From positions 137,020,001-137,084,000 of the forward strand of contig JANJGN010000001.1 of assembly GCA_026770705.1 (NCBI GenBank): 64,000 nt of DNA. Direction: 5' to 3'. The stretch is from Isurus oxyrinchus (lineage: Eukaryota). Shown here in pieces: positions 1 to 45,464 of the stretch; the stretch's first letter is position 1, and each line of letters opens with the position of its first letter. Both the position numbers and the translations under genes were made by a program. The notes below the pieces were generated by a model that worked only from the letters and a program-made list of their open reading frames with translations, was not told the DNA's origin and ran no database searches.

Positions 1-2936
1 CAAGCTACGTCTTGGTGCTTGTTGGAAAGTTCTGGCGATGAGGCATTCTGCCAAATGACTTTGTCAGTCTGCTCAGGGAACCATCCCACAGGATCCACCC
101 TCTCCTTTTCCCTCAGGGCCTTTAAGACGTTACGTGCCGACTGGTCAAAGGTGTTTCTCTGCATAAATTTTCCCACGAGGGACAGGTGGTACGGCATGGT
201 CCAACTACTTGGAGCGTTCCGCGGCATCGTGGCCAGACCCATCCTTCGTAACACCGGTGACAGGTAGAACCTCAGCACGTAGTGACACTTGGTGTTTGCA
301 TACTGAGGGTTTACGCACCGCTTGATGCAACCGCACACAAAGGTGGCCATCAGTATGAGGGCGATGTTGGGCATGTTTTTTCCCCCTTTATCTAGAGGCT
401 TGTACATCGTGTCCCTGCAGACACGATCCATTTTCGACCTCCAGATAAAGCGGAAGATGGCTCGGGTGATCGCCACCACACAGGAGTATGGAATGGGCCA
501 GACCTGTGCCACGTACAGCAACAGCGAGAGTGCCTCACACCTGATGACCAGGTTCTTACAGGCAATGGAGAGGGAGCGTCGCTCTCACATGCCCAGTTTC
601 CTTTTCACCATAGACACTCGCTCCTTCCAGTTTCTAACGCGTGCCCTGGTCCCTCCGAACCATATCCCCAGCACCTTCAGGCCATCAGCCCTGACAGTGA
701 AGGGGACAAAGGATCGGTCAGCCCAGTTCCCAAAGAACATGGCCTCGCTCTTCCCACGATTTACCTTGGCTCCCGAGGCCAGTTCGAACTGGTTGCAGAT
801 GTGGATCAGTCTGTGCACCGACAGCGGATCCGAGCAGAAGACGGCGACATTGTCCATGTACAGGGAGACTTTGACCTGAGTGCCTCCACTGCCTGGGATC
901 GTCACTCTTCTTATACCCGGATCCTTCCTGATGGACGCAGCAAAGGGTTCTATGCAACACACGAAAAGAACAGGCGAGAGAGGGCAGCCCTGCCTGACTC
1001 CAGATTTAATAGGAAAGCTATCTGATTCCCACTCATTGATTGAATCTGCATTACTGATGTTAGTGTAGAGCAGTTGAATCCAATTGCGAATTCCCTCCCC
1101 AAACCCCATTTTGGAGGGCACATCCACCATGTAGGTGTGCGATATTCTGTCAAAGGCCTTCTCCTGATCCAGGCTGATGAGGCAGGTATCCACACCCCTG
1201 TCCTGTACATAGGCAATCGTAACCCTGAGCAGCACGAGGCTGTCAGAGATCTTCCTGCCCGGCACAGTGCAGGTCTGGTCAGGGTGGGGATCACCAATTC
1301 CAGAGCGGATTTGACCCGATTGGCAATGACCTTGGACAGAATCTTATAGTCCACATTTAACAGTGAAATGGGTCGCCAATTTCTAATTTCCTCCCTTTCC
1401 CCCTTGTGCTTGTAGATGAGGGTGATGATGCCTTTCCTCATGGATTCTGACATACTGCCGGCCAGGAGCATACTCTCGTACACTTCTAGCAGGTCCGGGC
1501 CGATCCAGTCCCACAGAGCTGAATACAACTCCGCCGGCAAGCCGTCGCTTCCAGGAGTTTTACTCTTCTCGAAGGACTCAAGGGCCTCAGTCAGTTCGTC
1601 AGGAGTTAGCGCTTTGTCCAGACTCTCCCGTGTACTGTCGTCTAAGACCTCTGTGATAGAGGACAGGAAGGACTGGGAGGCCGTGCTGTCTGTGGGCTTC
1701 ACGTCATACAATCCGGCATAAAAGGATTTGCTGATCCTCAAAATGTCGGACTGCGATGACTTTACTGAGCTGTCTTCTTCCTTCAGGCTGCTGATCACAG
1801 AGCTCTCTCTGTGTACCTTTTGGAAGAAGAAACGTGAGCACGTCTCATCCTGCTCCACGGAGCGGACTCTGGAACGGAAGATGATCTTGGAGGCCTCCGA
1901 GGCAAAGAGTGAGGCTTGCTGGCTCTTCACCTCTTGGAGTTCCTCCTTGATATCAACCCCCATCGACCGCAGCCAGAGCAGATTCTGCATGTTTTTCTGG
2001 AGTCGGGACATTTCCCTCTGTTCCTTTCTAGCTTTCTGGGTGCCTTTGAGGACAAAAAACCTCTTGACGTTTCCCTTGATCGCTTCCCACCAGTGTGTCA
2101 AGGACTCAAAGAGGGGTTTCATGGTTCTCCAACCTTTGTAATCCCTCTTGAGCTCCTCAATATTCTCTGGGGTCAGCAGTTGCATGTTTAGCTTCCATAC
2201 CCCCCTGCTAACCCTCTGGTCCTTCTCTAAGTGGCAGTCAGCCAGTAGGAGGCAGTGGTCAGAGAAGAACACCGGCTTGACGTCGGTGGATCTGACTGCA
2301 AATAGGCGGACACAAACAGGAAGTGTATCCTGGAACAGACGGACCCATCAGGCCGCGACCAGGTGTATCTATGCTGCGCTCCATCTGCAGGTTGCTGAAG
2401 ACGTCGTGCAGCTTGGCATCCTTTACTGTTTCCATCAGGGATCTGGACGTAGCGTCCAATCTGCTGTCGGCCCTGCCGGATCGTCCAGCCGCATCGATGA
2501 TGCAGTTGAAGTCACCGCCCAGAATGACCGGCCTGGAGGTTGCCAGCAGCTGTGGGAGCTGCTGAAAAACCTCCAGCCGCTCAGCCCCTTGTGACGGGGC
2601 GTAGACGTTAATTAACCGGAGTGGAGCATTCTTGTACATTAAGTCTGCTACGAGGAGGCACCCGCCCACCACCTCCTTAACCTGGGAGACGGTGAAGTTG
2701 CCTCCCCGCAGCAGAATACCCAGGCCAGAGGAACGAGAGTCGTTTCCTCCCGACCTGATCGATGGCCCATGGGACCACCATCGTGACCATTGCCTGTAGG
2801 AGCTGAGGTGCAGTATCACACACTCCTGCAGAAACAACAGGTCAGCTTTGACCTTGGCAAGGTAGTCCAAGGTCGCAACACATCGCGTAGTAGATTTAAT
2901 GCTACGCACATTTATGGATACAATCTTTACACCCAT
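1..2936 (-). pseudogene. Tx1 ORF2 endonuclease-reverse transcriptase, split by frameshifts
   Basis: EN motifs SINVRS, LQE, INVYAP, GGDFN, SDH (ORFs 2259-2936, 950-2272). RT motifs PGSDGLPAELY, NWRPISLLNVDYKI, LDQEKAFDRI, GVRQGCPLSP. The catalytic YxDD reads YMDN. Confidence 0.9.
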
Positions 2937-2946
2937 TTTAAAGCAG

Positions 2947-4492
2947 TTAGTCGCTTACCAAAGCTGTTGTCTCTGAGAGTTCCTTCATGCCCGTGGTGTG
3001 CTCAAATTGCTTCACTTGGGATGGGCTGAGGAAAGCGTCCTGAACCTCCCCATTGGCGGTGTTCTGCTCGGGTGGCATCTGGGGGTCCGTGCAGAGAGCG
3101 GGGTTTGAAATGTCCTCTGTTGGAGAAGCTTCTCCAATCCTCTCCCGCTCTGGGTCGTTGCTGCTCCCAGCTTCCCGGAGCTGGGGTGCGTTGAGCGCCT
3201 CACTGTTCCCAGATTCCTGGGGTTGTGGTACACTGGCCTCGTCGGGTTGTGGGCCAAGTTGGGGTGCGCTGGTCTCCTCATTGTCTCCAATGTTCTGGAG
3301 CTCGGGTGTCTCGTCCTCCAACTCCCTAGCGTTTTGCCGCTTCTTCTGTTGGCGCCGCCCTGGCACTTCTTCGTCCGAAGAGCTGCTGCTCTTGTTATCC
3401 GTGTCGGATAGGAGACGCCTCTTGACTCTTGTCTGGGAAGTGGCTTGGTTTCTTTTTAGCCCCTTCTTCCTTTTGGCTCTCTTCACCAGCTGCCACTTCC
3501 CCTGCTGCTTTCCCACTGCTGCCTCCTCCTCCTCCGTTGATTCGCTCTCCTGAGGAGTGGGAGGTTCAGGGGGCAGTGCTGTTGATTGGCTGTCTGCTGC
3601 CTCAATTTTTTCCTCCACCTTGTCTCTCTGTGTGTCCTCCTTTGTCCTGTTGTTCTCCCTGGGGTCCTTGGTAGTCGGAGTGACACGAGGCATTTCTTCT
3701 GCTTCCCCCTCGTTGGCTTTGGCTGCCTGTGTATAAGTACGGCAACGTTTGGGGCAGGTCTTGTAGAGGTGACTTGCCTCGCCACACAGGTTGCAGCACT
3801 TAGCCTGTTTACAGCCTTTTGTCTGGTGCCCTTCCTTTTTGCAGTTCTTGCGGAGGACAGCGCTGCAATTGGCCGCCACATGACCAGACTTGCCGCATGA
3901 GCGACAAAGTTTGGGTTGCCCAGCGTAGACAAGGTAGCCACGGCTTCCCCCGATAGCGAATCTGGAAGGGGGGTGGGAAACAGCTCCCTTACCGTCGGTC
4001 TTGAGCGTTACCTTAACCTGGCGGTTACATGTCCAGATCCCCAAATTATCTTTAACTTCAGTGCAGCTCCCAACCTTATCGAAGTACCTGGTAAGGAAGG
4101 TGAGCACGTCAGCGACAGGGACGTAGGGATTGTACAGATGCACCGTCGCAACCCGTTCACGGTGCAACGGTAGGGCAAAGAGTGGCTCCGCCGCCAGGAT
4201 CTTCATTTCTGGCAGGTCTTTCTTTTCCTCAAACACCTTCAGGAGTTTGACGCAAGCTGCCACGTGCTTGAAGGTCACATCAAAGAAACCAGCGCTGGGT
4301 GGTGGTGGTGGGGGGGGGGGGTGTGAAATCCTGTAGGCAGTAGATCTCCGCAGCCTCGAAACCACACAGCTTGAGTAGGATCCTCTTAGTGAAGAAGGTC
4401 CGAACCATTCCTGTTCCTTGCTCGCTGCCCTTCACCATGACTCGGATGGTGTTAGGTACCCCGTGGTGAGGGGTTTGACGGGTTATAGCCAT
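2947..4492 (-). pseudogene. Tx1 ORF1 (ZCCHC3-like CCHC zinc-knuckle protein), frameshifted
   Basis: ATG at 4492 (MAITRQTPHHGVPNTIRV...EIYCLQDF). The frame shifts in a (GGT)n/G-run at ~4297-4324 and continues SAGFFDVTF. Knuckles: CRSCGKSGHVAANC, (R)KNCKKEGHQTKGC, CNLCGEASHLYKTC. Confidence 0.85.
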
Positions 4493-5409: not shown

Positions 5410-5543
5410 TAAAAATCAAAACGGGATGCTGGAAATCTGAAATAAAAACAAAACCAGCTGGAAAAACTCAGCAGGTCTGACGGCCTCTGCGGAGAGGGCG
5501 ACAGTTAACGTTTCGAGTCTGTAATAGCTCTTGATCAGAACTG
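5410..5543 (-). mobile_element. Short Penelope terminal remnant with hammerhead-like motif in the PKD2 promoter
   Basis: gatgctggaaatctgaaataaaaac...gaaaaactcagcaggtctg. The minus strand reads CAGTT-CTGATCA-A-GAGCTATTACAGACTC-GAAA-CGTT-AACTG. Confidence 0.75.
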
Positions 5544-6304: not shown

Positions 6305-6344
6305 GTGAGTGTGAGAGCCGCACTGCGAAACACTGAAATAACAC

Positions 6345-7235
6345 AGACCCCCCCCCCCCCCCAGCACAGCCCCCAGCCCCCAACACAGCCCCAAACCCCC
6401 CCCAGCCCAGCCCCCAGCCCCACCCCCCCCCCCACAGCACAGCCCCCACAGCACAGCCCCCAGCCCCACCCCCCCCAGCACAGCCCCCAGCCCCACCCCC
6501 CCCCCCCCCACAGCACAGCCCCCAGCACAGCCCCCACAGCACAGCCCCCAGCCCCACCCCCCCCAGCACAGCCCCCAGCCCCACCCCCCCCCCCACAGCA
6601 CAGCCCCCAGCACAGCCCCCCCAGCACAGCCCCCAGCCCCACCCCCCTCCCAGCACAGCCCCCAGCCCCACCCCCCCCAGCACAGCCCACAGCCCCCAGC
6701 CCCACCCCCCCCCAGCACAGCCCCCAGCCCCCAGCACAGCCCCCAGCCCCACCCCCCCCAGCACAGCCCCCAGCCCCCAGCACAGCCCCCAGCCCCAGCC
6801 CCACACCCCCCCCCACAGCACAGCCCCCAGCCCCACCCCCCCCCACAGCACAGCCCCCAGCCCCACACCCCCCCCCACAGCACAGCCCCCAGCCCCCCAC
6901 CCCCACAGCACAGCCCCCCCCCACAGCACAGCCCCCAGCCCCAGCCCCCCACCCCCACAGCACAGCCCCCCCCCCCAGCACAGCCCCCAGCCCCCCACCC
7001 CCACAGCACAGCCCCCAGCCCCAGCCCCCCACCCCCACAGCACAGCCCCCAGCCCCCCACCCCCACAGCACAGCCCCCAGCCCCCCACCCCCACAGCACA
7101 GCCCCCCACCCCCACAGCACAGCCCCCAGCCCCCCACCCCCACAGCACAGCCCCCAGCCCCCCACCCCCACAGCACAGCCCCCAGACCCCCCCCCCCCCC
7201 CAGCACAGCCCCCAGCCCCAGCACAGCCCCCAGCC
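6345..7235. repeat. C-rich compound satellite (CCCCACAGCACAGCCCCCAG-type) at the start of PKD2 intron 1
   Basis: About 900 bp of CAGCA/CAGCC/Cn permutations, with almost no T on the + strand. Confidence 0.95.
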
Positions 7236-7371
7236 CGTCCCCAACAGTAATCCGGCCGGGAGGGGGGAAAGGTGTTTTCAATCAGGGTCTGGGATCCGCC
7301 TGAGAGGCAAACTCAATTCGACTCTTCAAGAGAGAACTGGGTGATTACTTCCCAGAATTGCAGAGGGACCG

Positions 7372-11654: not shown

Positions 11655-11765
11655 TGCTCTAAAGAAGGGTCATATTGACTTGAAACGTTAACTCTATTTC
11701 TCGCTCCACAGATGCTGCTCGACCTGAGTTTTTGCAGCATTTTCTGTTTTTGTTTCAGATACTCC
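11655..11765 (+). mobile_element. Old Penelope terminal remnant with decayed hammerhead-like motif
   Basis: CTAAAGA-A-GGGTC-ATATT-GACTT-GAAA-CGTT-AACT, then gatgctgctcgacctgagtttttgcagc. Confidence 0.65.
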
Positions 11766-14700: not shown

Positions 14701-16883
14701 GACTTGGCAAGTATTCTGTTGTTCCACAATCTGTTCTTCCAACTCAAGACTCTAATGTTACTTGACCTATGGCAGCAGATGCTGGTTTTGAAACCTGGTT
14801 TACAAGTTGATTCCAGCCTTTAGTTCTTGAATGTGTTGGTCTTTGCTTGATGAACAATGGGGCACTATTGTAACGTTTGTGTAGGTAGCACTTTTGTTAA
14901 AGATGTAGAGATATATTCACCATGATCTGACATCAGTTTATCTATATATGACAAATCATGATGTAATATGGCATTCTGATTCAGCATTGTAAGGATTATT
15001 TTCACTAGTGGTGCCTTCTGCAGAAAGTGAGAAAAACTACACTTGTTCCATTAATTTTTGAGCCAGAAAATCTTACATTCTACCCAAGGAATTATCCTTA
15101 CAGCTGAACGTTTCAGATATTAGTGCAACAGTGATTTCTGCTGATTTGTTTTCTGGTGTTTACAGTGAGAATAATTCAAACTTTCACTTAATGTGAATTT
15201 CAAGCTTTTGCAATATATTTTCATGAGAGCTGGATGCCTAACTTCTGGAGAAAAGCTTCAGATGCTGAGAGTTATAAAAATGCAATGCAACAGAAAGAAT
15301 AACATGGAAAGTGAGGGCCATGAAATGTAGGAAAAAGCATAACTGTGTTCAAAAGGTCAGGCTTAAGGCTGGGACAGTCATCTACTGGCCTGACTGCATT
15401 TATATGGTAAATGTTGAGACAAGTATTGCAGACAGTTGAATTTTTTGAATGATAATTTATTAAAATTTGAACTAAAACCTCTAACAATCATTGTTAAACT
15501 GTTAGGTCGTCAACATGTATTAGAAATGCATTTGGTTCCACAGGAAAGAGTTTATTCTGTCTAGCTGGTGGGATTGAGATCTCTTAATGTAAACTTGTGC
15601 TTAAAATTTGTGACGTTGCTTTGTTGCTAAGTCCCTGTCACAGCTGTGTAACTGTACACTTAGATTGGATCTTCATTTTCCCCCTAAATAAAACATGGAA
15701 CTCTCCCAAAAAGTATCTTCAGTTTGTAACAATGAACTCATTTAAATTTTTATAAAAATCCTCTTCGAAAAGCAGTGATTGAGGTGGTTGGCGCATGTCC
15801 TGATCCCTTTCTCAGGCCATTTGGTTGGGTTACAAGAGTGGGTCAGGGCTCTTTGTCAGTTTTATTCCCCTCGTTTTATTATACGGAAGTATGTGGCCTG
15901 TGCTCCAAGTGCCCTGCAATCTCCTTCTTGCCTACCCACAAGGTGATAAAAATCCAAATTAGGAATTTGGCTCATACAAATTACAGATGCAATTTAATAG
16001 GAGTATCAGAACTGCAAAGCTTAATAGTTTTCGTTTTAAACATCTAGCCGTGAATTTCTGTGCCCTGCTGCAATAATCCTAATACTGCTGTATCACATTG
16101 TGGAATTTTATAAGGGCTTACGCTAATTCAATAAAGTTCCAATTCATTTTTTGGAATATCTTATGAACAACTTGCTTGCACATACATCTATAAATATGCG
16201 TATATATATGTGACAAAGATTATTTTGGCTAACATCGCTGCATTTATGCAGAACTGGTGATTTTTCATTCTGAGGCCTTTTCTGCCAATCCGACCATAGG
16301 GGCAGGTTGGGAGATGTGGTCTTCGTATCGTTGTCGTCTGTTTGTAGTGCAATGTAAACTGCAGCTGATGGAACATTGATAGCTATGTGACGCCTTTGAA
16401 TGGTCTTGCAATTCTCAAAACAAGAGCAAGTTTGATACCATTATGTCATGCATTATTTATTTAGTGTATGAGTAGTCACAGAGCCAATCAATAGCCTTGT
16501 CAGTGGTTAGATGGAGTTCTTTAAGCCCACCTTCAAACTTAGTCAGCAAACCCTCCTCGACAATGTGATTATTGTTTGGACTGCACCACAGCTGCAGCCT
16601 GGATGGTCTTGGTGACCTCACTGATGTTGGGTGGCTACACAGAGGCCCTGGCCAGTGTGGAAACAGTTTAAAAGGCTCAACGCATCATGCATTGATTGGT
16701 TTGGTGCGAAACTTGCTTCTGTAATGATATATGTCAATTAATGGTAGTTATAGAATTATTTTAAATCTCATGAAATTTGATTTGTAAACTCTATTGGTCT
16801 ATGTAGCCTATAAATGTTTGATTTTTACTGTTTGATGTTGTTTCAAAAGTCCATGTCATTACCCTCTTTTATTCTTTCTTAAG

Positions 16884-16997
16884 CTTTATGGGGGACACGT
16901 CTGACTGTGGATCAAGCTATTAGTAGAGAAAGATACCTGAAGAACATGCTGCGAGAGTTGGTGACATACATCATTTTCATGGTGATTCTGTGTATCT
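16884..16997 (+). CDS. PKD2: Polycystin-2 exon 2 (not in ORF track)
   Basis: ttaag/ LWGTRLTVDQAISRERYLKNMLRELVTYIIFMVILCI /gtaagt; 114 nt. Confidence 0.95.
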
Positions 16998-20299: not shown

Positions 20300-21920
20300 C
20301 TTCCAGGAAGAAGGAGGGGTGAATATTAATGATCTAGATCTTGGTGTGCTGGGGACAATTTCAAAGTTTGCGGATGTTACGAAGCTTGGGAGTGTTGTAA
20401 ACTGAGGAGGACGGTGTAGAACTTCAAAAGGACATAGACAAGTTGGTGGAGTGGGAAGATAGGTGGCAGATGAAGTTCAATGCGGAGAAGTGCAAAGTGT
20501 TGCATTTTGGTAGGAAGAACATAAACGATATAAAATAAGGGGTAAAATTTTGAAGGGGGTGCAGGAGCATAAAGACCTGGGTGTTTATGTGCACAGATCG
20601 TTGAAAGTGACAGGACCATTGGAGAGAGCAGTTAATACAGCATATAGTATCCTGAGCTTCATTAATAGGGGCATACAATCCAAGAGCAAGGAGGTTATGC
20701 TAAATTTATATAAGACATTCATTAGACCTCAGCTGGAATATTGTGTACAGTTCTGGGCGCCACATTATAGGAAGGATGTGAACACATTGGAGCGAGTGAA
20801 GAAGAAGTTTACAAGATGTCTACTGCATTCGTTGCTCCCAATGCGGTTTCCTCTACATTGGAGAGACCAAACGCAGACTGGGTGACCGCTTTGCAGAACA
20901 CCTTCGGTCTGTCCGCAAGCATGACCCAGAGCTCCCTGTCGCTTGCCATTTCAACACTCCACCCTGCTCTCATGCCCACGTGTCCGACTTGGCCTGCTGC
21001 ATTGTTCCAGTGAAGCTCAATGCAAACTGGAGGAACAGCACCTGATCTTCTGACTAGGCACTTTATAGCCTTCCGGACTGAATATTCATTCAACAATTTT
21101 AGATCATGAACTACCTCCTCCATCCCCACCCTTTTTTTTCCAATAATTTATATATATTTTTCTTTTCCTATCTATTTCCATTATTTTTAAATGTATTTCC
21201 ATCCATTGTTTTATCTCTACCTTTTAGCCTATTTCGATCCCTTCCCTTCACCTCATCCCACCCCCACTAGGGCTATCTGTACCTTGCTTGTCCTGCTTTC
21301 TACCCTTAATTAGCACATTCCTTAGATAATCTTTTCTACTTTTACTTAGTTCTGTTGAAAAGTCATGAGGACTCGAAACGTTAATTGTGTTCCTCTCCGC
21401 AGATGCTGCCAGACCTGCTGAGTTTTTCCAGGTACTTTTATTTTTGTTGGAGGTTTACAAGAATGGTTCTAGGGATGAGAAACATCAATGAGGTTGATTG
21501 GAGAGGTTGAGACTGTTCTCCTTGGAGAGAAGGCAGCTGAGAGGAGATTTGATAGAGATGTTCAAAATCATGAGGGGGCTGGACAGAGTAGATAAGGAGA
21601 AGCTGTTCCCACTCGTACAATGATCAAGAACAAGAGGGCACAGATTTAAAATGATATACAAAAGAAGCAATTGTGACGTGAGGAAAAACTTTTTCACACT
21701 ACGAGTGGTTCGGGTCTGGAATGCGCTGCCTGAAAGTGTGGAGGAGACAGGTTCAATCGAGGCATTCAAAAGGGCATTAGATGATTATTTGAATAGAAAT
21801 AATGTGCAGGGGTACGGGGAAAGGGCAATGGCATTAGGTCATAATGCCCATCGGGAGAGCTGGTGTAGCCATGATGGGTGGAATGGCCTCCTGTGCCATT
21901 AAAATTCTGTGAATCTGTGA
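20300..21920 (+). mobile_element. CR1 LINE 3' fragment interrupted by a Penelope insertion
   Basis: KDLGVYVH...LYKTFIRPQLEYCVQFWAPHYRKD up to 20816; resumes at ~21450 and ends in a CR1 tail (attctgtg). Confidence 0.85.
20817..21448 (+). mobile_element. 5'-truncated Penelope-like element (GIY-YIG C-terminus, tail and hammerhead motif)
   Basis: Homologous to 25980-26309 (YCIRCSQCGFLYIGETKRRLGDRFAEH). Near-perfect TSD GA(A/G)GTTTACAAGA at 20804-20816 and 21450-21462. Confidence 0.85.
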
Positions 21921-22432
21921 AAATTGGTGGCAAAAGAGGCAGGGAAAAGGAGTGTTTTTACAGAGCTCTCTTCTACATGTGACTCACGTGGCTAATCTGG
22001 ATTCAAAGTGAAACTAATTATTTTTGAAGCTGTGTTCAAGTCATTGTCAGGGATTCAGTCATCCACAACGGATTAATAATTAACATATTGTGCATCTTTT
22101 GCCCTATCCACAGTGCTCCATGATAACCAAACATTGTGGTAGAAATTGAGGTATACAAAGTAGAAACAAGAAGCCATCTCGTACAAGCACCCTGGCAGAA
22201 TCTGCATTTAGGAGGGTGCAGAAAAGGTTCATGAGAATAGTTCCAGGGATGAGTAACTTAAGTTAAATAGATTGGCCATTCCTTCATTGTCGCTGGTTCA
22301 AAATCCTGGAACTCCCTCCCTAACAGCACTGCGGGTATACCTACACCACATGGACTACAGCGCTTCAAGGTAGCTCACCACCACCTTGCCAAGGGCAACT
22401 AGAGATGGGCAATACATGCTGGTCTAGCCTGT

Positions 22433-23322
22433 AATAAAAACAAAAAAACTGCGGATGCTGGAAATCCAAAACAAAAACAGAATTACCTGGAAAAACTCAG
22501 CAGGTCTGGCAGCATCGGCGGAGAAGAAAAGAGTTGACATTTCGAGTCCTCATGATCCTTCAGCAGAACTAGGTGAATGCAAGGAGAGGGNNNNNNNNNN
22601 NNNNNNNNNNNNNNNNNNNNNNNNNNNNNNNNNNNNNNNNNNNNNNNNNNNNNNNNNNNNNNNNNNNNNNNNNNNNNNNNNNNNNNNNNNNNNNNNNNNN
22701 NNNNNNNNNNNNNNNNNNNNNNNNNNNNNNNNNNNNNNNNNNNNNNNNNNNNNNNNNNNNNNNNNNNNNNNNNNNNNNNNNNNNNNNNNNNNNNNNNNNN
22801 NNNNNNNNNNNNNNNNNNNNNNNNNNNNNNNNNNNNNNNNNNNNNNNNNNNNNNNNNNNNNNNNNNNNNNNNNNNNNNNNNNNNNNNNNNNNNNNNNNNN
22901 NNNNNNCTGCCACTGCTCTTCAAGAAATGCCTACCTTGAAGTTCTGTTCGTCTCTGCGACAAGATTTCCGTATCTATACCTTGAGTGCACTACCATCCGT
23001 TCTTAATTAGCACATTCGTTTAGATAATATCACCAACTTCAACACCTCTGTGTTCTTTTGTTCTTTTGTCTGTGACATCTTTTGATGATCTGCTCCTATC
23101 ACTGCTTGCTTGTCCCTACAACCACACCACCCCCCTCCACTTCTCCTCTCCACCCCCACCCCCCGCACACACCTTAACACCTTAAACCAGCTTATATTTC
23201 ACCCCTCTCCTTGGATTCATCTATTCTGTTGAAGGGTCAAGAGGACTCGAAACGTCAACTCTTTTCTTCTCCGCCGATGCTGCCAGACCTGCTGAGTTTT
23301 TCCAGGTAATTCTGTTTTTGTT
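22433..23322. mobile_element. Young Penelope-like element with inverted termini, spanning an assembly gap
   Basis: The left ~150 bp is the reverse complement of the right end. Perfect 14-bp TSD CTGGTCTAGCCTGT at 22419-22432 and 23323-23336. Inserted into a LINE/SINE 3' tail. Confidence 0.85.
22591..22906. other. Assembly gap (316 N)
   Basis: Run of n. Confidence 1.
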
Positions 23323-23374
23323 CTGGTCTAGCCTGTGATGCCCACACACCCTAAATGAATATAAAAATTGGCGA

Positions 23375-23790: not shown

Positions 23791-24470
23791 TCTGGCTTGG
23801 GATAGTTGGTTGAAGTGACACTGGAGTTTGGTGACAGCTGTACAATATTACAGCACCACATCACGCAGACACAAGGCTGAATTTTGGTCTTGTTGACAGG
23901 ACAGATGAGACATAGTATGGAAGTCACAAACTCATTATGTTAAGGAAAATATCAGAAAGAGAGGGTTTGAAACTCTGGCTTTTGATTAGATGTTTATATT
24001 TCTACTCAGCAGCAAATCCATTTTGAGTGCCTTTAATTTATACGGTGATCCCCTTTCTTCTGCATGCTGAAAGAATGATTGATAGAGGAAATTGAGGAGC
24101 TGCCCCCTTGCACCCCCCCCCCCCCCCCCCCCCCCCGTTCTAGCTGGGACTTGTGGTGTAACTGTAGGCAGCTTTTAAATTAGGCCAGGGCCTCTGTAAA
24201 ACTCCAACCTGGAGTCCAATCAATGAGATCAGCCATGATCTTGATTGGCAGAGCTGGCTTGAGGGAGTACAAGGTTTACACCGCATTTATTATGTCCTGA
24301 TGTTGAGCCTCTAAAATACTACAGTTCAACAGACCTAGTCACTTAACCTTGCTTTCACCTGCAATGTCCGGAGGATCCCACACACTGGTTGACAATGTCT
24401 CATCTAGTTTAAAAACCCAGAATGAGCATTAAAACAAAGTTTCTATTCACTACTTTTATTTCTGTTACAG

Positions 24471-24604
24471 TGACCTATGGGATGGTCAGCTCCAACATGT
24501 ACTATTACACCAAAGTCATGGCCAATCTGTTCCTAGATACTCCTTTCTCTGAAAACGAGAAAACCAACTTCAGAAGCCTGTCCAACATGGATGATTTCTG
24601 GAAG
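24471..24604 (+). CDS. PKD2: Polycystin-2 exon 3
   Basis: [24 protein letters not shown]...MDDFWK; ag/gt borders. Confidence 0.95.
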
Positions 24605-25440
24605 GTACAGTTGCAGATTAAATACTTTAAAATTAATGAGTGAAAATGTAACCACAAAAGGGCAGTGGGCTATATAAATTAGTAATCCATATCCTCGTGT
24701 GTGTTTATTTATTTAGTACTTATCCTATGCCCTTAGTTGGATGCATCAAAATCTTCAGTTATTGCAAGAAGACTAGCAATAGACACGTTTCGAAGTGCAG
24801 TTGTCGATAACCAGGAGAGTTTTTGTTCTTGTAGGAAGTGGGTTTGGAGCAGGTTAGGGAATGTTTGAGGAGAAACATGTAGAGCAGAGTTAAAGAATTC
24901 AAATAGCAAAGCCTATGGCTATTTGGAGAATAATTTTTATGCAGTACGGGCTAAAGAATTGGGAGATGTAAAACTGAGACACTACAGTGCTGCCACTGCT
25001 GGGAGGGTATAGTTGCCTTGTGGCAAATATCAGTTACAAATGTAGACAACATGGAATTTATATTGGAAAATGTTGACACAAATGCTTGATAAATATGACA
25101 TTAGGAAGATTTGAGGGTGTATTAGGATGTATGGTTTTCATTTTAAATAGAAAGCTTTAATAGAGTCCACAACAGATTAGATTGTACAAGGTCTGTGGAA
25201 GGAGTAGACTCTTAAGCCAAATGGATCCCATCTCCAGTCTGTGGCTAAAGAAGCAGCTCTCAAATCTGTTCCTGGGTATATTATTCAAGGGGGAGAGGGA
25301 GAAGAACAAACCCAGTGAATATTGCCCAACCCAATGGGATAGAATGGATAAAAACCTTGTTTAAATTTGTGGGGGGGGAAGATAGTTCATTTAAAAAGAA
25401 ACACTCATACAGCTTGCAGAATGTTGTTTAGATGTTGGCA

Positions 25441-27108
25441 TAAAGGCAGAATACTGTGGATGCTGGAAATCTGAAACAAAAACAAAAAAATGCTGGAAAA
25501 ACTCAGCAGGTCTGTGGAGAGAAAGACAGTTAAACTTTTGAGTCTGTATGACTCCTTCAGGGCTAAAGAAGTAGAAATATGGTGAAATATATACTGTTTA
25601 GGGAGGGCAGAACAGATAAAGCTGGATAGAGGGCCAGCGATAGGTGGAGGCAAAGGAGAAATTGCGAAAGATATAAACAAAAGGTCAAGAGGTTGTTAAT
25701 AGTGGTAGTACTGGCTAAAGGAGGTGCTAATGGTGACATTGAGTGGAAAGCAGAATGTGATAATGGCAGATGGCTCTAGTGGGGGTGGAGTGGGGTGAGG
25801 GGACGGTGTGGGGAAAAAAGATCGAAAAGGTTAAAAGCTGGGGATAAAACAATGAATAAAAATGGAAATCAATTTTTAAAATAATGAAAATAAGTGGGGA
25901 AAAAATTAAATAAAAATTAAAAAAATAAAAATGAATAAGATAAAAGGGATTAAAAAGGATTGGGGATGGAGGAGAGAGTTCATGGTCTGAAGTTATTGAA
26001 CTCAGTGTTAAGTCGGGAAGGCTGTAAAGTGCCTAGTCGGAAGATGAGGTTCTGTTCTTCCAGTTTGCGTTGAGCTTCACTGGAACATTGCAGCAGGCCA
26101 AGGACGGACATGTGGGCATGAGAGCAGAGTGGAGTGTTGAAATGGCAAGCGACAGGGAGGTCTGGGTCATGCTTGCGGACAGACCGAAGGTGTTCCACAA
26201 AGCGGTCACCCACTCTGCGTTTGGCCTCTCCAATGTAGAGGAGACCACATTGGGAGCAACGAATGCAGTAGACCAAATTGAAGGAGGTGCATGTAAAGTG
26301 CTGCTTCATCTGAAAGGAGTGCTTGGGCCCTTGGGTGGTGAGGAGGAGGGAAGTAAAGGGGCAGATGTTGTACCTTCTGCGATTGCATGGGAAGGTGCCG
26401 TGGGAGGGGTTGAGGTATTGGGGGTGATGGAGGAGTGGACGAGGGTATCCCGGAGGGAACGATCCCGGCGGAATGCTGACAGGGATGAAGGGAAGATGTG
26501 TTAGGTGGTGACATTATGCTGGAGTTGGCGGAAATGTCGGAGGATGATCCTTTGAATGCGGAGCCTGGTGGGGTGAAAAGTGAGGACAAGGGGGACCCTA
26601 TCATGGTTCTGGGAGGAGGAGGAAGGTGTGAGGGCGGATGCGCAGGAGATGGGTCGGATATGGTTGAGGGTCCTATCAACCACCGTGGGCGGAAAACCTC
26701 AGTTAAGGAAGAAGGGAGACATGTCAGAAGCACTGTTTTGGAAAGTGGCATCATCGGAACAGATGTGACAGAAGCGAAGGAACTGAGAGAATGGGATGGA
26801 GTCCTTACAGGAAGCGGGGTGTGAGGAGCTGTAGTCGAGGTAGCTTTGGGAATCGGTAGGCTTGTAATGGATATTGGTGGACAGTCTTTCACCAGAAATT
26901 GAGACAGAGGTCAAGAAAGGGTAGGGAGGTGTAGGAGATGGACCATGTGAAAGTGATGGAGGGGTCGAAATTGGAAGCAAAATTGTTAAATTTTTCCAGG
27001 TCCAGACAAGAGCATGAAACGGCACTGAAACAGTCATTGATGTACCAGAGAAAAGAGTTGTGGGAGGGAGACTGAGTAGGACTGGAACAAGGAATGTTCC
27101 ATATATTC
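25441..27108 (-). mobile_element. Penelope-like element: RT C-terminus, GIY-YIG endonuclease and tail
   Basis: ISGERLSTNIHYKPTDSQSYLDYSSSHP...IPFSQFLR; FTCTSFNLVYCIRCSQCGLLYIGEAKRRVGDRFVEH...VACHFN. TSD GTTTAGATGTTGG at 25426-25438 and 27109-27121. Confidence 0.92.
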
Positions 27109-27186: not shown

Positions 27187-27437
27187 TTCACAGAAGGCCC
27201 TTTGTTGGATGGGCTTTATTGGGATCTGTGGTACAATAATGAAACACTGGCTGAGAACAAAAGTTTCATTTACTATGAAAATCTGCTTTTGGGAGTGCCT
27301 CGCGTTAGGCAGCTAAAAGTGAAGAATGAATCTTGTAAAATACATGAAGATCTAAAAGATGAAATCAAGGAATGCTATGATGTGTATTCAGTTGCAAATG
27401 AAGATACGGCACCATTTGGCCTTATGTCTAAAACCGC
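27187..27437 (+). CDS. PKD2: Polycystin-2 exon 4 (TOP domain)
   Basis: [12 protein letters not shown]...[20 protein letters not shown]...ECYDVYS. Confidence 0.95.
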
Positions 27438-29966: not shown

Positions 29967-30195
29967 GTTGGTGGTCGAGTTCCCAGCAACAGGAGGTGCT
30001 CTTTCATCCTGGCAGTTTCAGACAGTGAAACTTATTCGCTATGTATCCTCATTTGACTATTTCCTGGCAGCCTGTGAAATTGCATTCTGTATTTTCATAT
30101 TTTACTACATCATTGAGGAGATTCTGGAGATCCATATTCACAAACTGTATTACTTCAGGAGTGTGTGGAACTGTTTGGATATTGTGATCATTGTG
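29967..30195 (+). CDS. PKD2: Polycystin-2 exon 6
   Basis: [10 protein letters not shown]...KLIRYV...[10 protein letters not shown]. Confidence 0.95.
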
Positions 30196-30703
30196 GTAAG
30201 TGTCTAACAGTGAGGTGAATGCAATTATTTTGTTACATTATTTTTGGAGGTTTAACCTACCATCAGAAAGGAGGTTTCTGCAAATACAGACTGATTTTAG
30301 CATTCAGCGGAAGAACTCGAAGAGGCGGCATCTTTTATATAAAAGATAAACAAATGGGCATTTCTAGAACACCTTTCATGACCTCAGGAGGCCCTGAAGC
30401 ACTTTACAGCCAGTGAAGTACTTTTGAAGTGTAGTCACTTTTAACGTAGGAAATTTTGGGCAGTGTTAGTTTTCCAGGCCTTTATCTCTGGGGCTTGGAG
30501 AAGTGTATTTGGTAGTCTTGTGCATCTTCTCTTCACCCTTACTCAGTATTGCAGCTTAAAGCCATTAGCTCCTCCTCTCACTTCAGCAACTTTCCCAACT
30601 AGTGATTCTGTAGGCTTGTGCTTCTGGTTGGTGGACTTAGTGGGCATTCCTGCAAGATCTGATTCTAGGCTGTGGTACTCTCCTCCTAACCCCAACTAAA
30701 CAC

Positions 30704-31815
30704 TGTTATGACCAAGTCCAGAAGCATGAATAAACTCCTCTCTTTTCTACCCCTGAGATTGGCTGTAATAGAGTTTGAATTTTTTTAAATTATGATTATC
30801 TTTTATTCAATTCAGGCTGCACTTGACCATATGTAAAGCGGTATGAAGAAATAAACCAGCCAGGTCTCTTGAGTTAACAAGTAAGCAGTTAGTTTTATTG
30901 TGTAAAAGTCCACCCAGGTAAAAATGTAAGACTTATTAAAAAGGTAAAAGCACATCCCGAAACCCGCAACATACACACAGAACACGTTATTGGGTGTAGG
31001 GGGTGGAATTAATGAGTTAAAGTCTGTGAGAGAGAGAGAGAGGAAATACATGCTCTGATGTTCTTTTGGGTGTCTTGAAATTCCAGGTGTTGTAGCCGAT
31101 GTAAGTTGGTTATTTTGCTGGAAGCAATCCCTTTTAAATTGTAATTCGTCTTCCTCCAAAGTGGATGTTATGGTACTTAGAAGTTTCTTTCGATTTAAAT
31201 TCTCCATCTCTGTTTCTGTGATGTATTCCAGATGTAACAGATGTAGGGTCCTGAATTTGGAAATTGAAGGTAGAGAGAGATGATGTTACAGGTCCATTCT
31301 GCAGACTCCTTATTTTCTGATACTAGCAACTTGTGCTGCCCTTTTCACACTTGGCAGTAAAGATGTCTGCTGTCATGCTGGCGTTCAAATTGCACTGTCG
31401 TTGGTTCCCACTGGCAGTGAAATTCTCTCTCCTGTGTTAGAAGTCTTTCAGATCAACAGTGGCCTCCTACAGGTCAGACAGTTTTTTTTGTGTATCCTGT
31501 CAGTCATTGTGGTAGCCAGAGGTGATTGAATATTAATGTCTCAGCTATTAACTCCTTGAGTGGTCCATTTCCCTCTTGATAATGTGGAGAAGGGCTTTTA
31601 CACCTCCAAGGGAACGCCATTGTTTCTCTGAGGGTTCCACAGAGTTGTTGACTCCATGATGAGGAATGTGGCTTTCACAACTGTAAATTAGCAACCGTTT
31701 TAACTCGGTGTCTTTTCTTTGCAAAAGTCCTTTTAAAGATATTCAGTATATCTCTGACCAGCCAATGAAATTAAAGAATAGCACTCCAATTTGCACATGA
31801 TACATCGTAATGACA
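30704..31815. mobile_element. Solo LTR (Gypsy/ERV-type)
   Basis: TG...CA termini with an imperfect inverted repeat (TGTTATGAC / GTAATGACA) and a 4-bp direct repeat ACAC on both flanks; no internal coding sequence. Confidence 0.65.
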
Positions 31816-31895
31816 ACACTGCTCAACCCAAGTAGGACAACCTTGTGTTGTTGATTCAATGGAAGTAGTAATTGTTTTACTTTCTTGTTTTCCAG

Positions 31896-32066
31896 CTTTC
31901 CTTGGTAGCAATTTGCATCAATCTGTATCGTACATCAATAGTCACTGAATTACTCGGAGAGTTACTTGAGAACCAGAATTCATACCCCAACCTCGAGTCT
32001 CTGGCATATTGGCAGATTCAGTTTAACAACATGACTGCAGTGGTTGTATTTTTTGCATGGATTAAG
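31896..32066 (+). CDS. PKD2: Polycystin-2 exon 7
   Basis: [13 protein letters not shown]...[10 protein letters not shown]...FAWIK. Confidence 0.95.
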
Positions 32067-32409
32067 GTATATTTATAATTAAACTATATAACTTGAACAT
32101 TCAGATTAAGTTCCTTGTTTAAGCCTTCAAACTCCAAACTTTTGCTGAATCCATTTTTTTTTGATTAAGCCACAATAAGGCTTAAAGTTTATATGTATAT
32201 AGTGAACAGCATGACAGGGTAGGAATAAGGTCGTAATACGCAAACAGCTACAAACTCTGGCGCACACATTCAGACACTACTCTCAATGCTTGAAAAGACC
32301 CGTTCTGCCACTCATGTCAGTAGGCTGTTAGTCCAGTGCTTGGCTATGCCTTCATTAGTGCAGGAGTCACTGCTACTGAAAGAGTAGCTCATGACGTAGG
32401 AGGAATATT

Positions 32410-32770
32410 ATATAGACGAATAAGGGGTGATGTAATTGAGCTGTTTAAGATGATTAAATTATTTGATAGGGTAGCTAGAGAGTAGTTGAGTCCAGAACAA
32501 TGGGGCTGAACCTTGGGTTTAATTTTAAGGATGAAGCCAGGAAGCCCTGCTTCACACACAGGTTAGTGGAAGTATGGAACTCTCTCCCAAAAGTGTTGAG
32601 GCTGTGGGTCAATTATAATTTTCAAAACTGAGACTGATAGGTTTTTGTTGGGTAAGCGCATTAAGAGTTTCAGAATGAAGGTGGTTAGATGGGGTTAGGA
32701 TACAGATCAGGCGTGATCTGATTAAATAATGGAACAGGCTGGTGGGGCTGAATGGCTTCCTCCTGTTCCT
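32410..32770 (+). mobile_element. Degraded CR1 3' fragment
   Basis: Typical CR1 end ...tggaactctctccc...gggctgaatggcttcctcctgttcct. Confidence 0.6.
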
Positions 32771-32894
32771 CCTGTGAAATGCCCTGCCAGGACCCGCAGT
32801 TAATAATGCGGAGGTGCCATTTAAGAGTTGAGATGCACTTTAGTTAAATTAGGAAGTAAAGTTGATTTATGACATGAAACTTTTATTTTCACAG

Positions 32895-33076
32895 ATCTTC
32901 AAATTTATTAGCTTCAACAAGACCATGACCCAGTTGTCTTCTACCATGTCTCGTTGTGCCAAAGACATCATAGGCTTTGCCATCATGTTTTTTATTGTTT
33001 TCTTGGCTTACGCTCAGCTGGCATACCTTGTCTTTGGCACTCAGGTTGATGACTTCAGCACTTTCCACACCTGCAT
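32895..33076 (+). CDS. PKD2: Polycystin-2 exon 8 (S4-S5 linker, S5)
   Basis: [24 protein letters not shown]...[22 protein letters not shown]. Confidence 0.95.
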
Positions 33077-33689
33077 GTAAGTGTCTTTTTGGTGGGGATG
33101 GGAATTTGAACCTCACTTGGTTGGAGTGCTTCAGAATTATTATTCTTTATTTTGTCCATAATTATGCTTTTTGTCTCTGTGCGTAGTCACATCCAGAAAT
33201 GCAATATAGTAACCTTGGGTTTATATGTATCTTTTTCCTCATATGTGCACACCAGATCTCTGTTTTATTTGTCATTTGTTTGCTTTGCACTGGTCTGCAT
33301 GCACTCACCAGTATCAAGTAGTGCCTTTATTCCCCTGTTGTTTAATTCATTTTTTTATGTTGGTATGTAGCTCTCCTTAGTTCCTTGAGGCAATGCATTT
33401 AGTGCTTACGCTGACTCAGTGTCAATTGGCCCAGAGGAAAGTGCTTGATGACATTTTATTCCACTGTTTTGTTTCTTGGGTCCTTCAGGTTTTCACCCTT
33501 TCCCACCTGGAACTAGCTATTTGTTTCTGTCCATAAATCTCTGCTGTGAGAGGCAGAAAATGAAAGATGAAACTCCTGCCTGCTCCTTCTCAATCATTTG
33601 AAAGAAGGGTGGATGTTTGAGATAGCTGCGACTTGCTGTAGCATTCCCTGGCACTTCAAGAGTTGGGTTAGACAGAAGCACTGCACGTG

Positions 33690-34660
33690 GGATGTTTCTG
33701 TGGCTGGAAGCCTGTTTCCTGTGGGGTTCTGCAGGGCTCGGTACTGGGGCCTTTGCTGTTTGTGGTGTACATAAATGATTTGGACTTAAATGTAGGGGGG
33801 ATGATCAAGAAGTTCGCAGATGCCACGAAAATTGCTAGGGTGGTAAATAGTGAGGAGGATAGCCGTAAACTGCAGGAGGATATCAATGGACTGGTCAGGT
33901 GGGCAGAGCAGTGGCAAATGGAATTCAACCCAGATTCAACTTGGGATTACACCATATTTGGTAGAACCCTGGGAAGGACTGAAGATCACAGGGATCTTGG
34001 TGTGCATATCCACAGATTCCTGAAGGCAGCAGGGCAGGTAGATAAGGTGGTTAAAAAGGCATATGAGGTACTTAACTTTATTGGCCGAGGCATAGAACAC
34101 AAGGTTATGCTGGAACTGTATAAAACGCTGGTTAGGCCACAACTGGAGTACTGTGTGCAGTTCTGGTCACCACACTATAGGAAGGATGTGATTGCAGAGG
34201 AGATTTACCAGGATGCTGCCTGGGCTGGAGGGCCTGAGCTGTGAGGAAAGATCGAATGGGCTGGGGTTGTTTTCCTTGGGGCGGCGAGGGTTGAGAAGGG
34301 ACCTGATAGAGATTAAGAGGGGTGTAGATAGGGTGGATAAGAAGGCACTTTTTCCATTAGTAGAGGGGTCAATAACTAGAGGGCATAGATTTAAGGTAAG
34401 AGGTAGAATGCTAAGAGGGGAGTTGAAGAGAAATTTTTTCACCCAGAGAGCGGTGGGAGTCTGGAACTCACTTCTTGAAAGGGTGGCTGAGTCAGAAACT
34501 CGCATTACATTTAAGAAGTATTTAGATATTCACTTGCGTTGCCATAGCCTCCAGGGCTATGGGTCAAGCCCTGGAAAATGGGCTTAAGTGTAGTCAGATC
34601 TTTGTTGCCTAGCGCAGACACTATGGGATGAATAGCTGCCTCCTGTGCTGTAAACATCTG
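33690..34660 (+). mobile_element. CR1 LINE RT/3' fragment
   Basis: GVLQGSVLGPLLFVVYINDLD...KFADATKI...LYKTLVRPQLEYCVQFWSPHY; TRGHRFKVRG. Confidence 0.9.
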
Positions 34661-34938
34661 AGTCTACATGCTTATGCAGCCTACATGGATGTATAGATTG
34701 GAATGTTTGTCACAGTGCCCATTTTCAACTCTGCATTAATCAGTTCTTAATTTTGAGTGCTTATTGGCTAAAACTCATTGTACAAGCAAACTACAACCAA
34801 TGGAGATATTGTCTCCCTTATTAAGATATTCTCTCACTTATGGATTAAACTCTATTATATTCCTCATTAATAACAAATTTGGATAGAGGTGGCAGATTGT
34901 TAACAAGTGGCCTTACTTTTCCTCTTTCCTTCTTGTAG

Positions 34939-35059
34939 CTTTACTCAATTTCGCATAATTCTGGGAGATTTTGACTTCACCAAAATTGAAGAAGCTGACC
35001 GGATTCTGGGACCAATTTATTTTGTCACTTTTGTGTTCTTCATTTTCTTCATTCTCCTG
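34939..35059 (+). CDS. PKD2: Polycystin-2 exon 9 (pore, S6)
   Basis: [40 protein letters not shown]. Confidence 0.95.
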
Positions 35060-45285: not shown

Positions 45286-45464
45286 GATAAAAACAAAAAA
45301 CTGCGGATGCTGGAAATCCAAAACAAAAACAGAATTACCTGGAAAAACTCAGCAGGTCTGGCAGCATCGGTGGAGAAGAAAAGAGTTGATGTTTCGAGTC
45401 CTCATGACCCTTTGACAGAACTGCCAGACCTGCTGAGTTTTTCCAGGTAATTCTGTTTTTGTTA
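45286..45464. mobile_element. Mini Penelope-derived insertion with a 43-bp perfect inverted repeat, in the putative PKD2 3' UTR
   Basis: AACAAAAACAGAATTACCTGGAAAAACTCAGCAGGTCTGGCAG (45322-45364) and its reverse complement (45421-45463). TSD AGA(A/T)TTTACTTGTA at 45272-45285 and 45465-45478. Confidence 0.85.

Follow-up and report, generated by a model that had tools for sequence, protein, structure and literature searches.

A hammerhead core with U at position 6 in an abundant Penelope-like retrotransposon of Isurus oxyrinchus

Within and around the PKD2 gene of Isurus oxyrinchus there are several copies of a hammerhead ribozyme motif in which the conserved A at core position 6 has been replaced by a pyrimidine. 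This raises the question of whether these are local copies that have decayed from a canonical ribozyme, or whether a retrotransposon has multiplied with an altered core, and in the latter case whether the ribozyme still has a role. The window, by which we mean the whole stretch of DNA analysed, is 64,000 nucleotides long (contig JANJGN010000001.1 of assembly GCA_026770705.1, positions 137,020,001 to 137,084,000), and coordinates are those of the window unless a locus is named. An initial annotation had described four main motifs and three older copies, all in Penelope termini inside PKD2. The four main motifs were recovered letter for letter and the three older copies are also present. The features are given below, with subfamilies running from S1 (oldest) to S6 (youngest) and with the bases at positions 6 and 7 written in the form U6U7.

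5502..5542, minus strand: older A6 copy with G8>C, upstream of likely PKD2 exon 1
11656..11694, plus strand: decayed copy of the oldest type (S1), A6 kept, G5>A
16880..16990 (approximate limits), plus strand: PKD2 exon that precedes the motifs, likely exon 2, located with short motifs; gene identity from PKD_channel and polycystin-2 matches
20818..21459, plus strand: 5'-truncated Penelope copy with the endonuclease end of the ORF, 3' UTR, hammerhead and 3' end; 77% and 84% identity to the young unit
21348..21386, plus strand: hammerhead motif of intermediate S3/S4 type with U6U7 and a private G10.1>A; lies in PKD2 intron 2 in sense orientation
22419..22432, plus strand: left copy of a 14-bp target-site duplication flanking insertion 22437-23322
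22437..23322, no strand assigned: S5-type insertion with two hammerhead ends, from sequence comparison with the young unit
22532..22570, minus strand: hammerhead motif in the inverted pseudo-LTR (pLTR) of this composite insertion; its private changes are C6, C15.2>U and a mismatch in stem II
23222..23260, plus strand: hammerhead motif at the 3' end of the composite insertion; U6U7, rest of core whole, sense to PKD2
23323..23336, plus strand: right copy of the 14-bp target-site duplication flanking insertion 22437-23322
24470..24605 (approximate limits), plus strand: PKD2 exon that follows the motifs, likely exon 3; gene identity from PKD_channel and polycystin-2 matches
25525..25563, minus strand: decayed S1-type copy, A6 kept
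45384..45422, minus strand: hammerhead motif, U6C7, private G8>A and G16.2>A, in a short fold-back insertion (45289-45463)

PKD2 is identified as the host gene by PKD_channel exons on the plus strand at 30037-35059 and by an exon at 27187 that matches polycystin-2 (E 6.5e-35) better than PKD2L1 (E 5.9e-31). The exons near 16880 and 24470, which are likely to belong to PKD2, bracket the motifs at 21348, 22570 and 23222, so that these three are likely to sit in intron 2. The placement of the motifs inside PKD2 therefore stands for these three but not for the older copy at 5502-5543, which lies upstream of the likely first exon (~5878) and so outside the gene. As the initial annotation had it, the plus-strand motifs at 21348 and 23222 are both sense to PKD2. 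Since both carry further damage, it is unlikely that the PKD2 pre-mRNA is affected or cut by them, and for PKD2 itself they are ordinary intronic repeat content. The window also contains a 1.2-kb minus-strand fragment of the same Penelope ORF and 3' UTR (25874-27106, 85% identical to the young unit), which ends 80 nt before a PKD2 exon. A LINE-like element with several broken frames occupies 585-4431 on the minus strand, ~1.4 kb upstream of the likely first exon of PKD2; judged by its motifs, it would include a zinc-knuckle ORF1, an APE-type endonuclease and RT. A G/C-rich tandem array at 6340-7300 directly follows likely exon 1.

The four main motifs represent three insertions, not four. Those at 22570 (minus strand) and 23222 (plus strand) are the two ends of a single insertion with a 14-bp target-site duplication and are thus not independent. 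This insertion consists, in order, of an inverted pLTR with tail (22570-22437), a masked stretch, a 5'-body piece (22907-22975) and the 3' UTR with pLTR (22974-23322). Because the end at 23222 has U6, the C6 of its partner most likely arose after insertion; the 23222 motif has itself lost the two outer pairs of stem I. The first base of the fold-back insertion at 45289-45463 is the first base of stem I. All four motifs have U6 or C6, as had been claimed for the four youngest-looking copies, but the one at 21348 is of an older, intermediate type, only 77-84% identical to the young unit.

Across 464 kb of contiguous genome a strict hammerhead descriptor matched 12 times, whereas none of 20 shuffles contained a match, so that chance does not account for the motifs. 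None of the four main local copies passes this descriptor, owing to private lesions beyond U6 in each. An Rfam scan of the window and of one full-length unit returned no match to a hammerhead family, and its Plastid-psbJ match is merely the fold-back at 45.3-45.4 kb. Neither Rfam nor the descriptor scan found a second, canonical ribozyme elsewhere in the unit.

To decide between local decay and a family-wide change we turned to the 4.98-Gb genome. Searching it for the young motif, with positions 6 and 7 left open to any base, yields 87,523 exact matches, compared with 0 for a reversed-pattern control. A6 is present in 171 of the 87,523, which rules out the explanation that the local copies were mutated from a canonical consensus; U6 is the state of the family and not local decay. 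Among the 100 matches listed, positions 6-7 are U6C7 in 79, U6U7 in 18, C6U7 in two and U6G7 in one, and A6 does not occur. A more general core pattern gives 106,398 non-A6 and 9,647 A6 matches genome-wide, an approximately tenfold excess of U6 over A6 in exact matches that is confounded with copy age. By the same counts, a descriptor search that insists on CUGANGA would overlook some nine-tenths of the copies matching the exact pattern in this genome.

The A6 groups diverge from their consensus by 10.2% in S1 (A6A7, n=8), 6.7% in S2b and 5.6% in S2 (A6U7, n=9 each). Divergence in the U6 groups is 4.8% for S3 (U6U7, n=37, a set that takes in S4 copies while its majority consensus stays S3-type), 3.0% for S5 (n=10) and 1.3% for S6 (U6C7, n=44). 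As read from these consensuses, A6 changed to U6 at subfamily S3 and U6 was then kept through S6, the youngest at 1.3% divergence. For the non-A6 pattern combined with the old loop there are 3,691 exact matches; of the 100 listed, nearly all are U6U7 and none has C7, which for S3 rules out the idea that all U7 results from CpG decay.

An unselected sample, comprising 1.064 Mb not chosen by motif and 118 copies anchored downstream, was scored at position 6. Young copies have U in 62 cases, C in one and A in none (12 did not reach the position), S3 copies have U in seven and A in one (three did not reach it), and old copies have A in 20, G in one and U in none (11 did not reach it). The proposal that a recently mobile subfamily spread with a variant core is thus upheld in that young copies have U6 and old copies A6, but the change spans S3-S6 and is not confined to one subfamily. 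Two further changes, stem II A-U to G.U and U17 to C, arise in parallel in the A6 and U6 branches (S1, S2b, S4-S6), for which either convergence or recombination between subfamilies could account.

The frame, domain and linker evidence agrees with the initial assignment to Penelope termini, placing the motif in the pLTR of a Penelope-like retrotransposon. Two full-length units, ~3.33-3.34 kb long, each hold a U6 motif at either end, sense to the open 926-codon frame that separates them. The Pfam domain RVT_1 was matched in unit L042 (E 7e-8, passing the cut-off) and in L044 (3.4e-6, under the cut-off), and GIY-YIG in L042 only (E 9e-4, under the Pfam cut-off). The 926-codon protein has DKG and YIDD motifs and two cysteines within the GIY-YIG motif, and its CX4CxxC linker falls within the CX2-5CxxC pattern that the excerpted text of PMC8557442 gives for Neptune/Nematis. 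By these features the element is classed as a Neptune-type EN+ Penelope-like element, a clade placed by motif and not by tree. Pseudo-LTRs, partial tandems, an inverted 5' copy and an optional tail are all present in the family, together with near-identical head-to-tail tandems at ~3.34 kb spacing. We also considered a non-LTR retrozyme, which by the available part of bioRxiv 10.64898/2026.07.22.740005 requires short non-coding tandem units with a type I hammerhead, and rejected it, as the units here are 3.3 kb long and coding.

The hammerhead lies ~180 nt upstream of the first ATG of the long ORF. It has the minimal type I architecture that had been proposed for it, matching the published form down to the extra base between A9 and G10.1 (PMC4209133, from the portion describing these ribozymes). 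The subfamily consensuses contain stem I, stem II with G10.1-C11.1, the extra base 9.1, a palindromic 15.2-16.2 and an NUH triplet, with 94% of cells paired. The core consensus C3 U4 G5 A6 N7 G8 A9 ... G12 A13 A14 is broken at A6 alone, which is U6 in S3-S6. Around the motif, young subfamilies have CAG/GTAATT ~55 nt past the cut site (L042:614-650) where the oldest have CAG/CATTTT, possibly a splice donor gained in the 5' UTR; the assembled contigs of sequencing runs contained no splice joint at this site. Two short upstream ORFs begin within and right after the hammerhead.

From S3 to S6 the ORF diverged with a dS of 0.17 and a dN of 0.028 (374 codons), while the 39-nt motif changed at N7, at two loop bases, in one stem II pair (A-U to G.U) and at U17 (to C). 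All five changes are at sites that a hammerhead tolerates (chance 0.002-0.008), and none is disruptive where ~4 disruptive changes would be expected at dS 0.17 (P 0.010-0.016), the set of "tolerated" sites having been drawn up with the data in view. S3-S6 retained every other core base as well as G10.1-C11.1 and a cleavable triplet (GUU, later GUC, never with G17), and the flanks changed heavily over the same span. In the genome there are 68,619 exact matches, to which freeing five loop sites adds 9,951 (2.9% per site, loop II) and freeing eight non-CpG core sites adds 3,784 (0.69% per site); G8 and G12, both in CpG, were excluded from the core count, and a small number of amplified variants (8 and 2 among the 100 matches listed) underlies the loop excess. 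Since later changes are limited to tolerated sites, and variation per site is 2.9% in loop II against 0.69% in the core, the hammerhead fold seems to be still under selection.

Alternatively, what is left could be an unconstrained vestige, A6U having hitch-hiked in one master element whose remaining motif has not yet decayed. Only five changes were fixed, and for these 39 nt neutral evolution at dS 0.17 would predict a similar number, ~6.6. In addition, two-sided stem covariation, whose absence the initial annotation had named as a refuting result, was found in none of nine pairs, with two pairs one-sided, in an alignment that offers a handful of changes among 12 closely related rows. However, the confinement of all five changes to tolerated sites, the fourfold higher frequency per site of loop over core variants and the heavily changed flanks make this explanation highly improbable. 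Constraint need not mean catalysis, as a 31-nt block downstream of the hammerhead is nearly as invariant across subfamilies.

Stem II pairing predicted for 45-nt transcripts of single copies drops to 0.43 in the youngest subfamily from 0.83-1.00 in S2-S4, which counts against a fold that is still selected, but it is 0.07 in S1. Upstream of stem I, at L144:1345-1358 and homologous S5-S6 sites, a near-copy of the 3' strand of stem II with GAA was assembled stepwise from S4 to S6. Through this duplicate a type II circular permutation might arise, or an anti-hammerhead hairpin in which it pairs with the motif's 5' half; predicted folds of single copies did not agree with one another.

The positions at which copies begin give no sign that self-cleavage shapes insertions. 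Among S3-S6 copies of the unselected sample, 30 of 69 at risk have their 5' end where stem I begins, 30-44 nt ahead of the cut; for the interval +5..-4 around the cut the figure is two of 86. Of 30 loci with 5' body, some of which belong to the same array, 22 run through the cut site, eight start 60-110 nt past it and none starts at it. Junction loci fall at the cut in five of 30 cases, compared with five and six at two other offsets, and there was no 5'-end peak at the cut site among 88 informative rows (~7-8 by eye, against a mean of ~7 per position). The older A6 families have the same 5'-end peak at the start of stem I, and the boundary data therefore say nothing specific about U6. All groups have a TATA-like box 27-32 nt ahead of stem I.

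As the 5' ends cluster where stem I begins and not at the cut, uncut RNA is likely to be the template for insertion. The simplest reading would place the transcript start at stem I and have the uncut RNA copied from a priming site within it; many of the 5' ends are fold-back points, which pausing of the reverse transcriptase could also give, and re-ligated circles would restore an identical sequence across the cut. In four two-pass insertions with an internal jump (L117, L119, L135 and L143) both starts lie within 1-6 nt just 5' of stem I, which suggests that the reverse transcriptase reached the same RNA end twice. Contigs from 23 sequencing runs, most of them merely guessed to be RNA, contained no credible circular joints, starts or ends at the motif, and their table of variants has no entry in the motif's 5' half, where at least CpG decay would be expected.

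These ends also bear on the possibility that U6 is fully competent in vivo, through the element protein, a dimer or Mn2+, with cleavage and re-ligation giving unit-length circles that template the tandems. The constraint on the remaining core and the near-identical head-to-tail tandems ~3.34 kb apart would fit such a cycle, and excerpts of the literature provide precedents in the protein-assisted cleavage of the Poseidon_Ac hammerhead (PMC11167929), the rescue of A6C by Mn2+ (PMC7151607) and the circle model proposed in PMC4209133. Yet most short copies end at the start of stem I, upstream of the cut, and require a leader-bearing RNA; read-through transcripts also yield tandems, and catalytic mutants of the Poseidon_Ac hammerhead had no effect on insertion in vitro (same excerpt of PMC11167929). 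We therefore consider full activity unlikely.

How far U6 would reduce catalysis can be estimated from related mutants. In the accessible portion of PMC9901934, single and double mutants of the CUGA turn have low activity, with the exception of the C3G/G8C swap. A natural A6C hammerhead shows slow but detectable cleavage, being slow in Mg2+ and rescued by Mn2+ (excerpts of PMC3088659 and PMC7151607). By analogy with these, U6 is likely to slow self-cleavage greatly.

It is possible, although we hold it to be clearly short of an even chance, that the ribozyme has been catalytically dead since S3 and that its sequence or fold is retained in a non-catalytic role, for instance as a site bound by the element protein or as an initiator with a downstream promoter element in the DNA. 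The low activity of CUGA-turn mutants fits this, as does the drop in Mg2+ rate by orders of magnitude that A6C caused in a fast hammerhead (PMC7151607, as excerpted). Minimal Penelope hammerheads are already weak with A6 (PMC4209133), and Naiad elements thrive without canonical hammerheads (PMC8557442), both according to the sections available. Ends are not in excess at the cut, and the 5' strand of stem I occupies the place expected of an initiator. Against this, the other core bases, G10.1-C11.1 and the cleavable triplet were all kept through S3-S6, and a plain DNA element is not expected to vary just at N7, loop II, the wobble and H17.

The explanation that we favour, at about an even chance, is a damped ribozyme that is dispensable for insertion and would clip a capped leader. 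Judging from the DNA, transcription would start at the first base of stem I, 29-32 nt downstream of the TATA-like box, so that the hammerhead would form the capped 5' end of the RNA. With internal priming by the element protein 65-110 nt beyond the cut site, the reverse transcriptase would copy back through the uncut motif. Cleavage, which probably requires a second hammerhead or the element protein, would clip the capped 35-nt leader and so remove the RNA from use, acting as a brake or as a late processing step. With U6, a slow residual activity would persist and remain under selection. A more far-reaching version, which we regard as doubtful, is a self-limiting switch at the capped 5' end of the transcripts, in which A6U, by turning cleavage down and not off, released the largest burst of the family in this genome; this would be a selected, working U6 core variant in a vertebrate.

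The element class and its hammerhead are already known; what appears to be new is a U6 core fixed in an active vertebrate lineage, which did not appear in our literature search. That search returned no report of a U6 Penelope hammerhead; one may already be included in a 2017 study by Lunse, Weinberg and Breaker, which reportedly deals with small variant hammerheads from Penelope elements. The series described here is dated within one lineage, with older A6 families and younger U6 families that have open reading frames and more than 100,000 copies. An abundant, recently multiplying element with an altered core is a natural test of the need for the ribozyme in Penelope elements, and the availability of matched A6 and U6 RNAs and proteins makes this need directly testable. 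The role of the hammerhead in EN+ Penelope elements is stated to be unclear, perhaps that of a parasite of the element, in the part of PMC8557442 concerned with it.

The comparisons that follow draw on excerpts of the papers cited. The closest counterparts are the hammerheads in the pLTRs of metazoan Penelope elements (PMC4209133; Cervera and de la Pena 2014), with which the motif shares its pLTR position, its orientation sense to the ORF, a 4-bp stem I, the extra base between 9 and 10.1, G10.1-C11.1, the palindromic 15.2-16.2 and the absence of loop 3; in both cases copies are mostly solo and truncated. It differs from them in having U6 as the family state and a 5-bp stem II, and in a copy number of >100,000 versus thousands. 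The variants named in the excerpt of that paper are U3-A8 and stem variants, not A6 variants.

Poseidon_Ac of Anolis (Frangieh et al. 2024, PMC11167929) is likewise a vertebrate, endonuclease-bearing Penelope with tandem units, an optional tail, two 3' end points and no sign of ends at the cut. It belongs to a different clade from the present element with its CX4CxxC linker, and its hammerhead overlaps the ATG of the ORF, which here is ~180 nt further on. Ribozyme activity has been demonstrated for Poseidon_Ac and is a prediction for the element described here. The hammerhead of phage Bcep176 (PMC3088659, PMC7151607) also has a natural pyrimidine at core position 6, and it cleaves slowly but detectably. 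The phage example has C6 at one locus and is monomeric, unlike the U6 motif, which is minimal, of the dimer type and amplified by a retrotransposon. Lastly, the Neptune/Nematis EN+ elements (Craig et al. 2021, PMC8557442) resemble this family in their single ORF with RT, CX2-5CxxC linker and C-terminal GIY-YIG, and in their partial tandems, inverted 5'-truncated copy and tail. What sets the Isurus element apart from them, with its clade placed by motif and not by tree, is a non-canonical hammerhead core in an active lineage.
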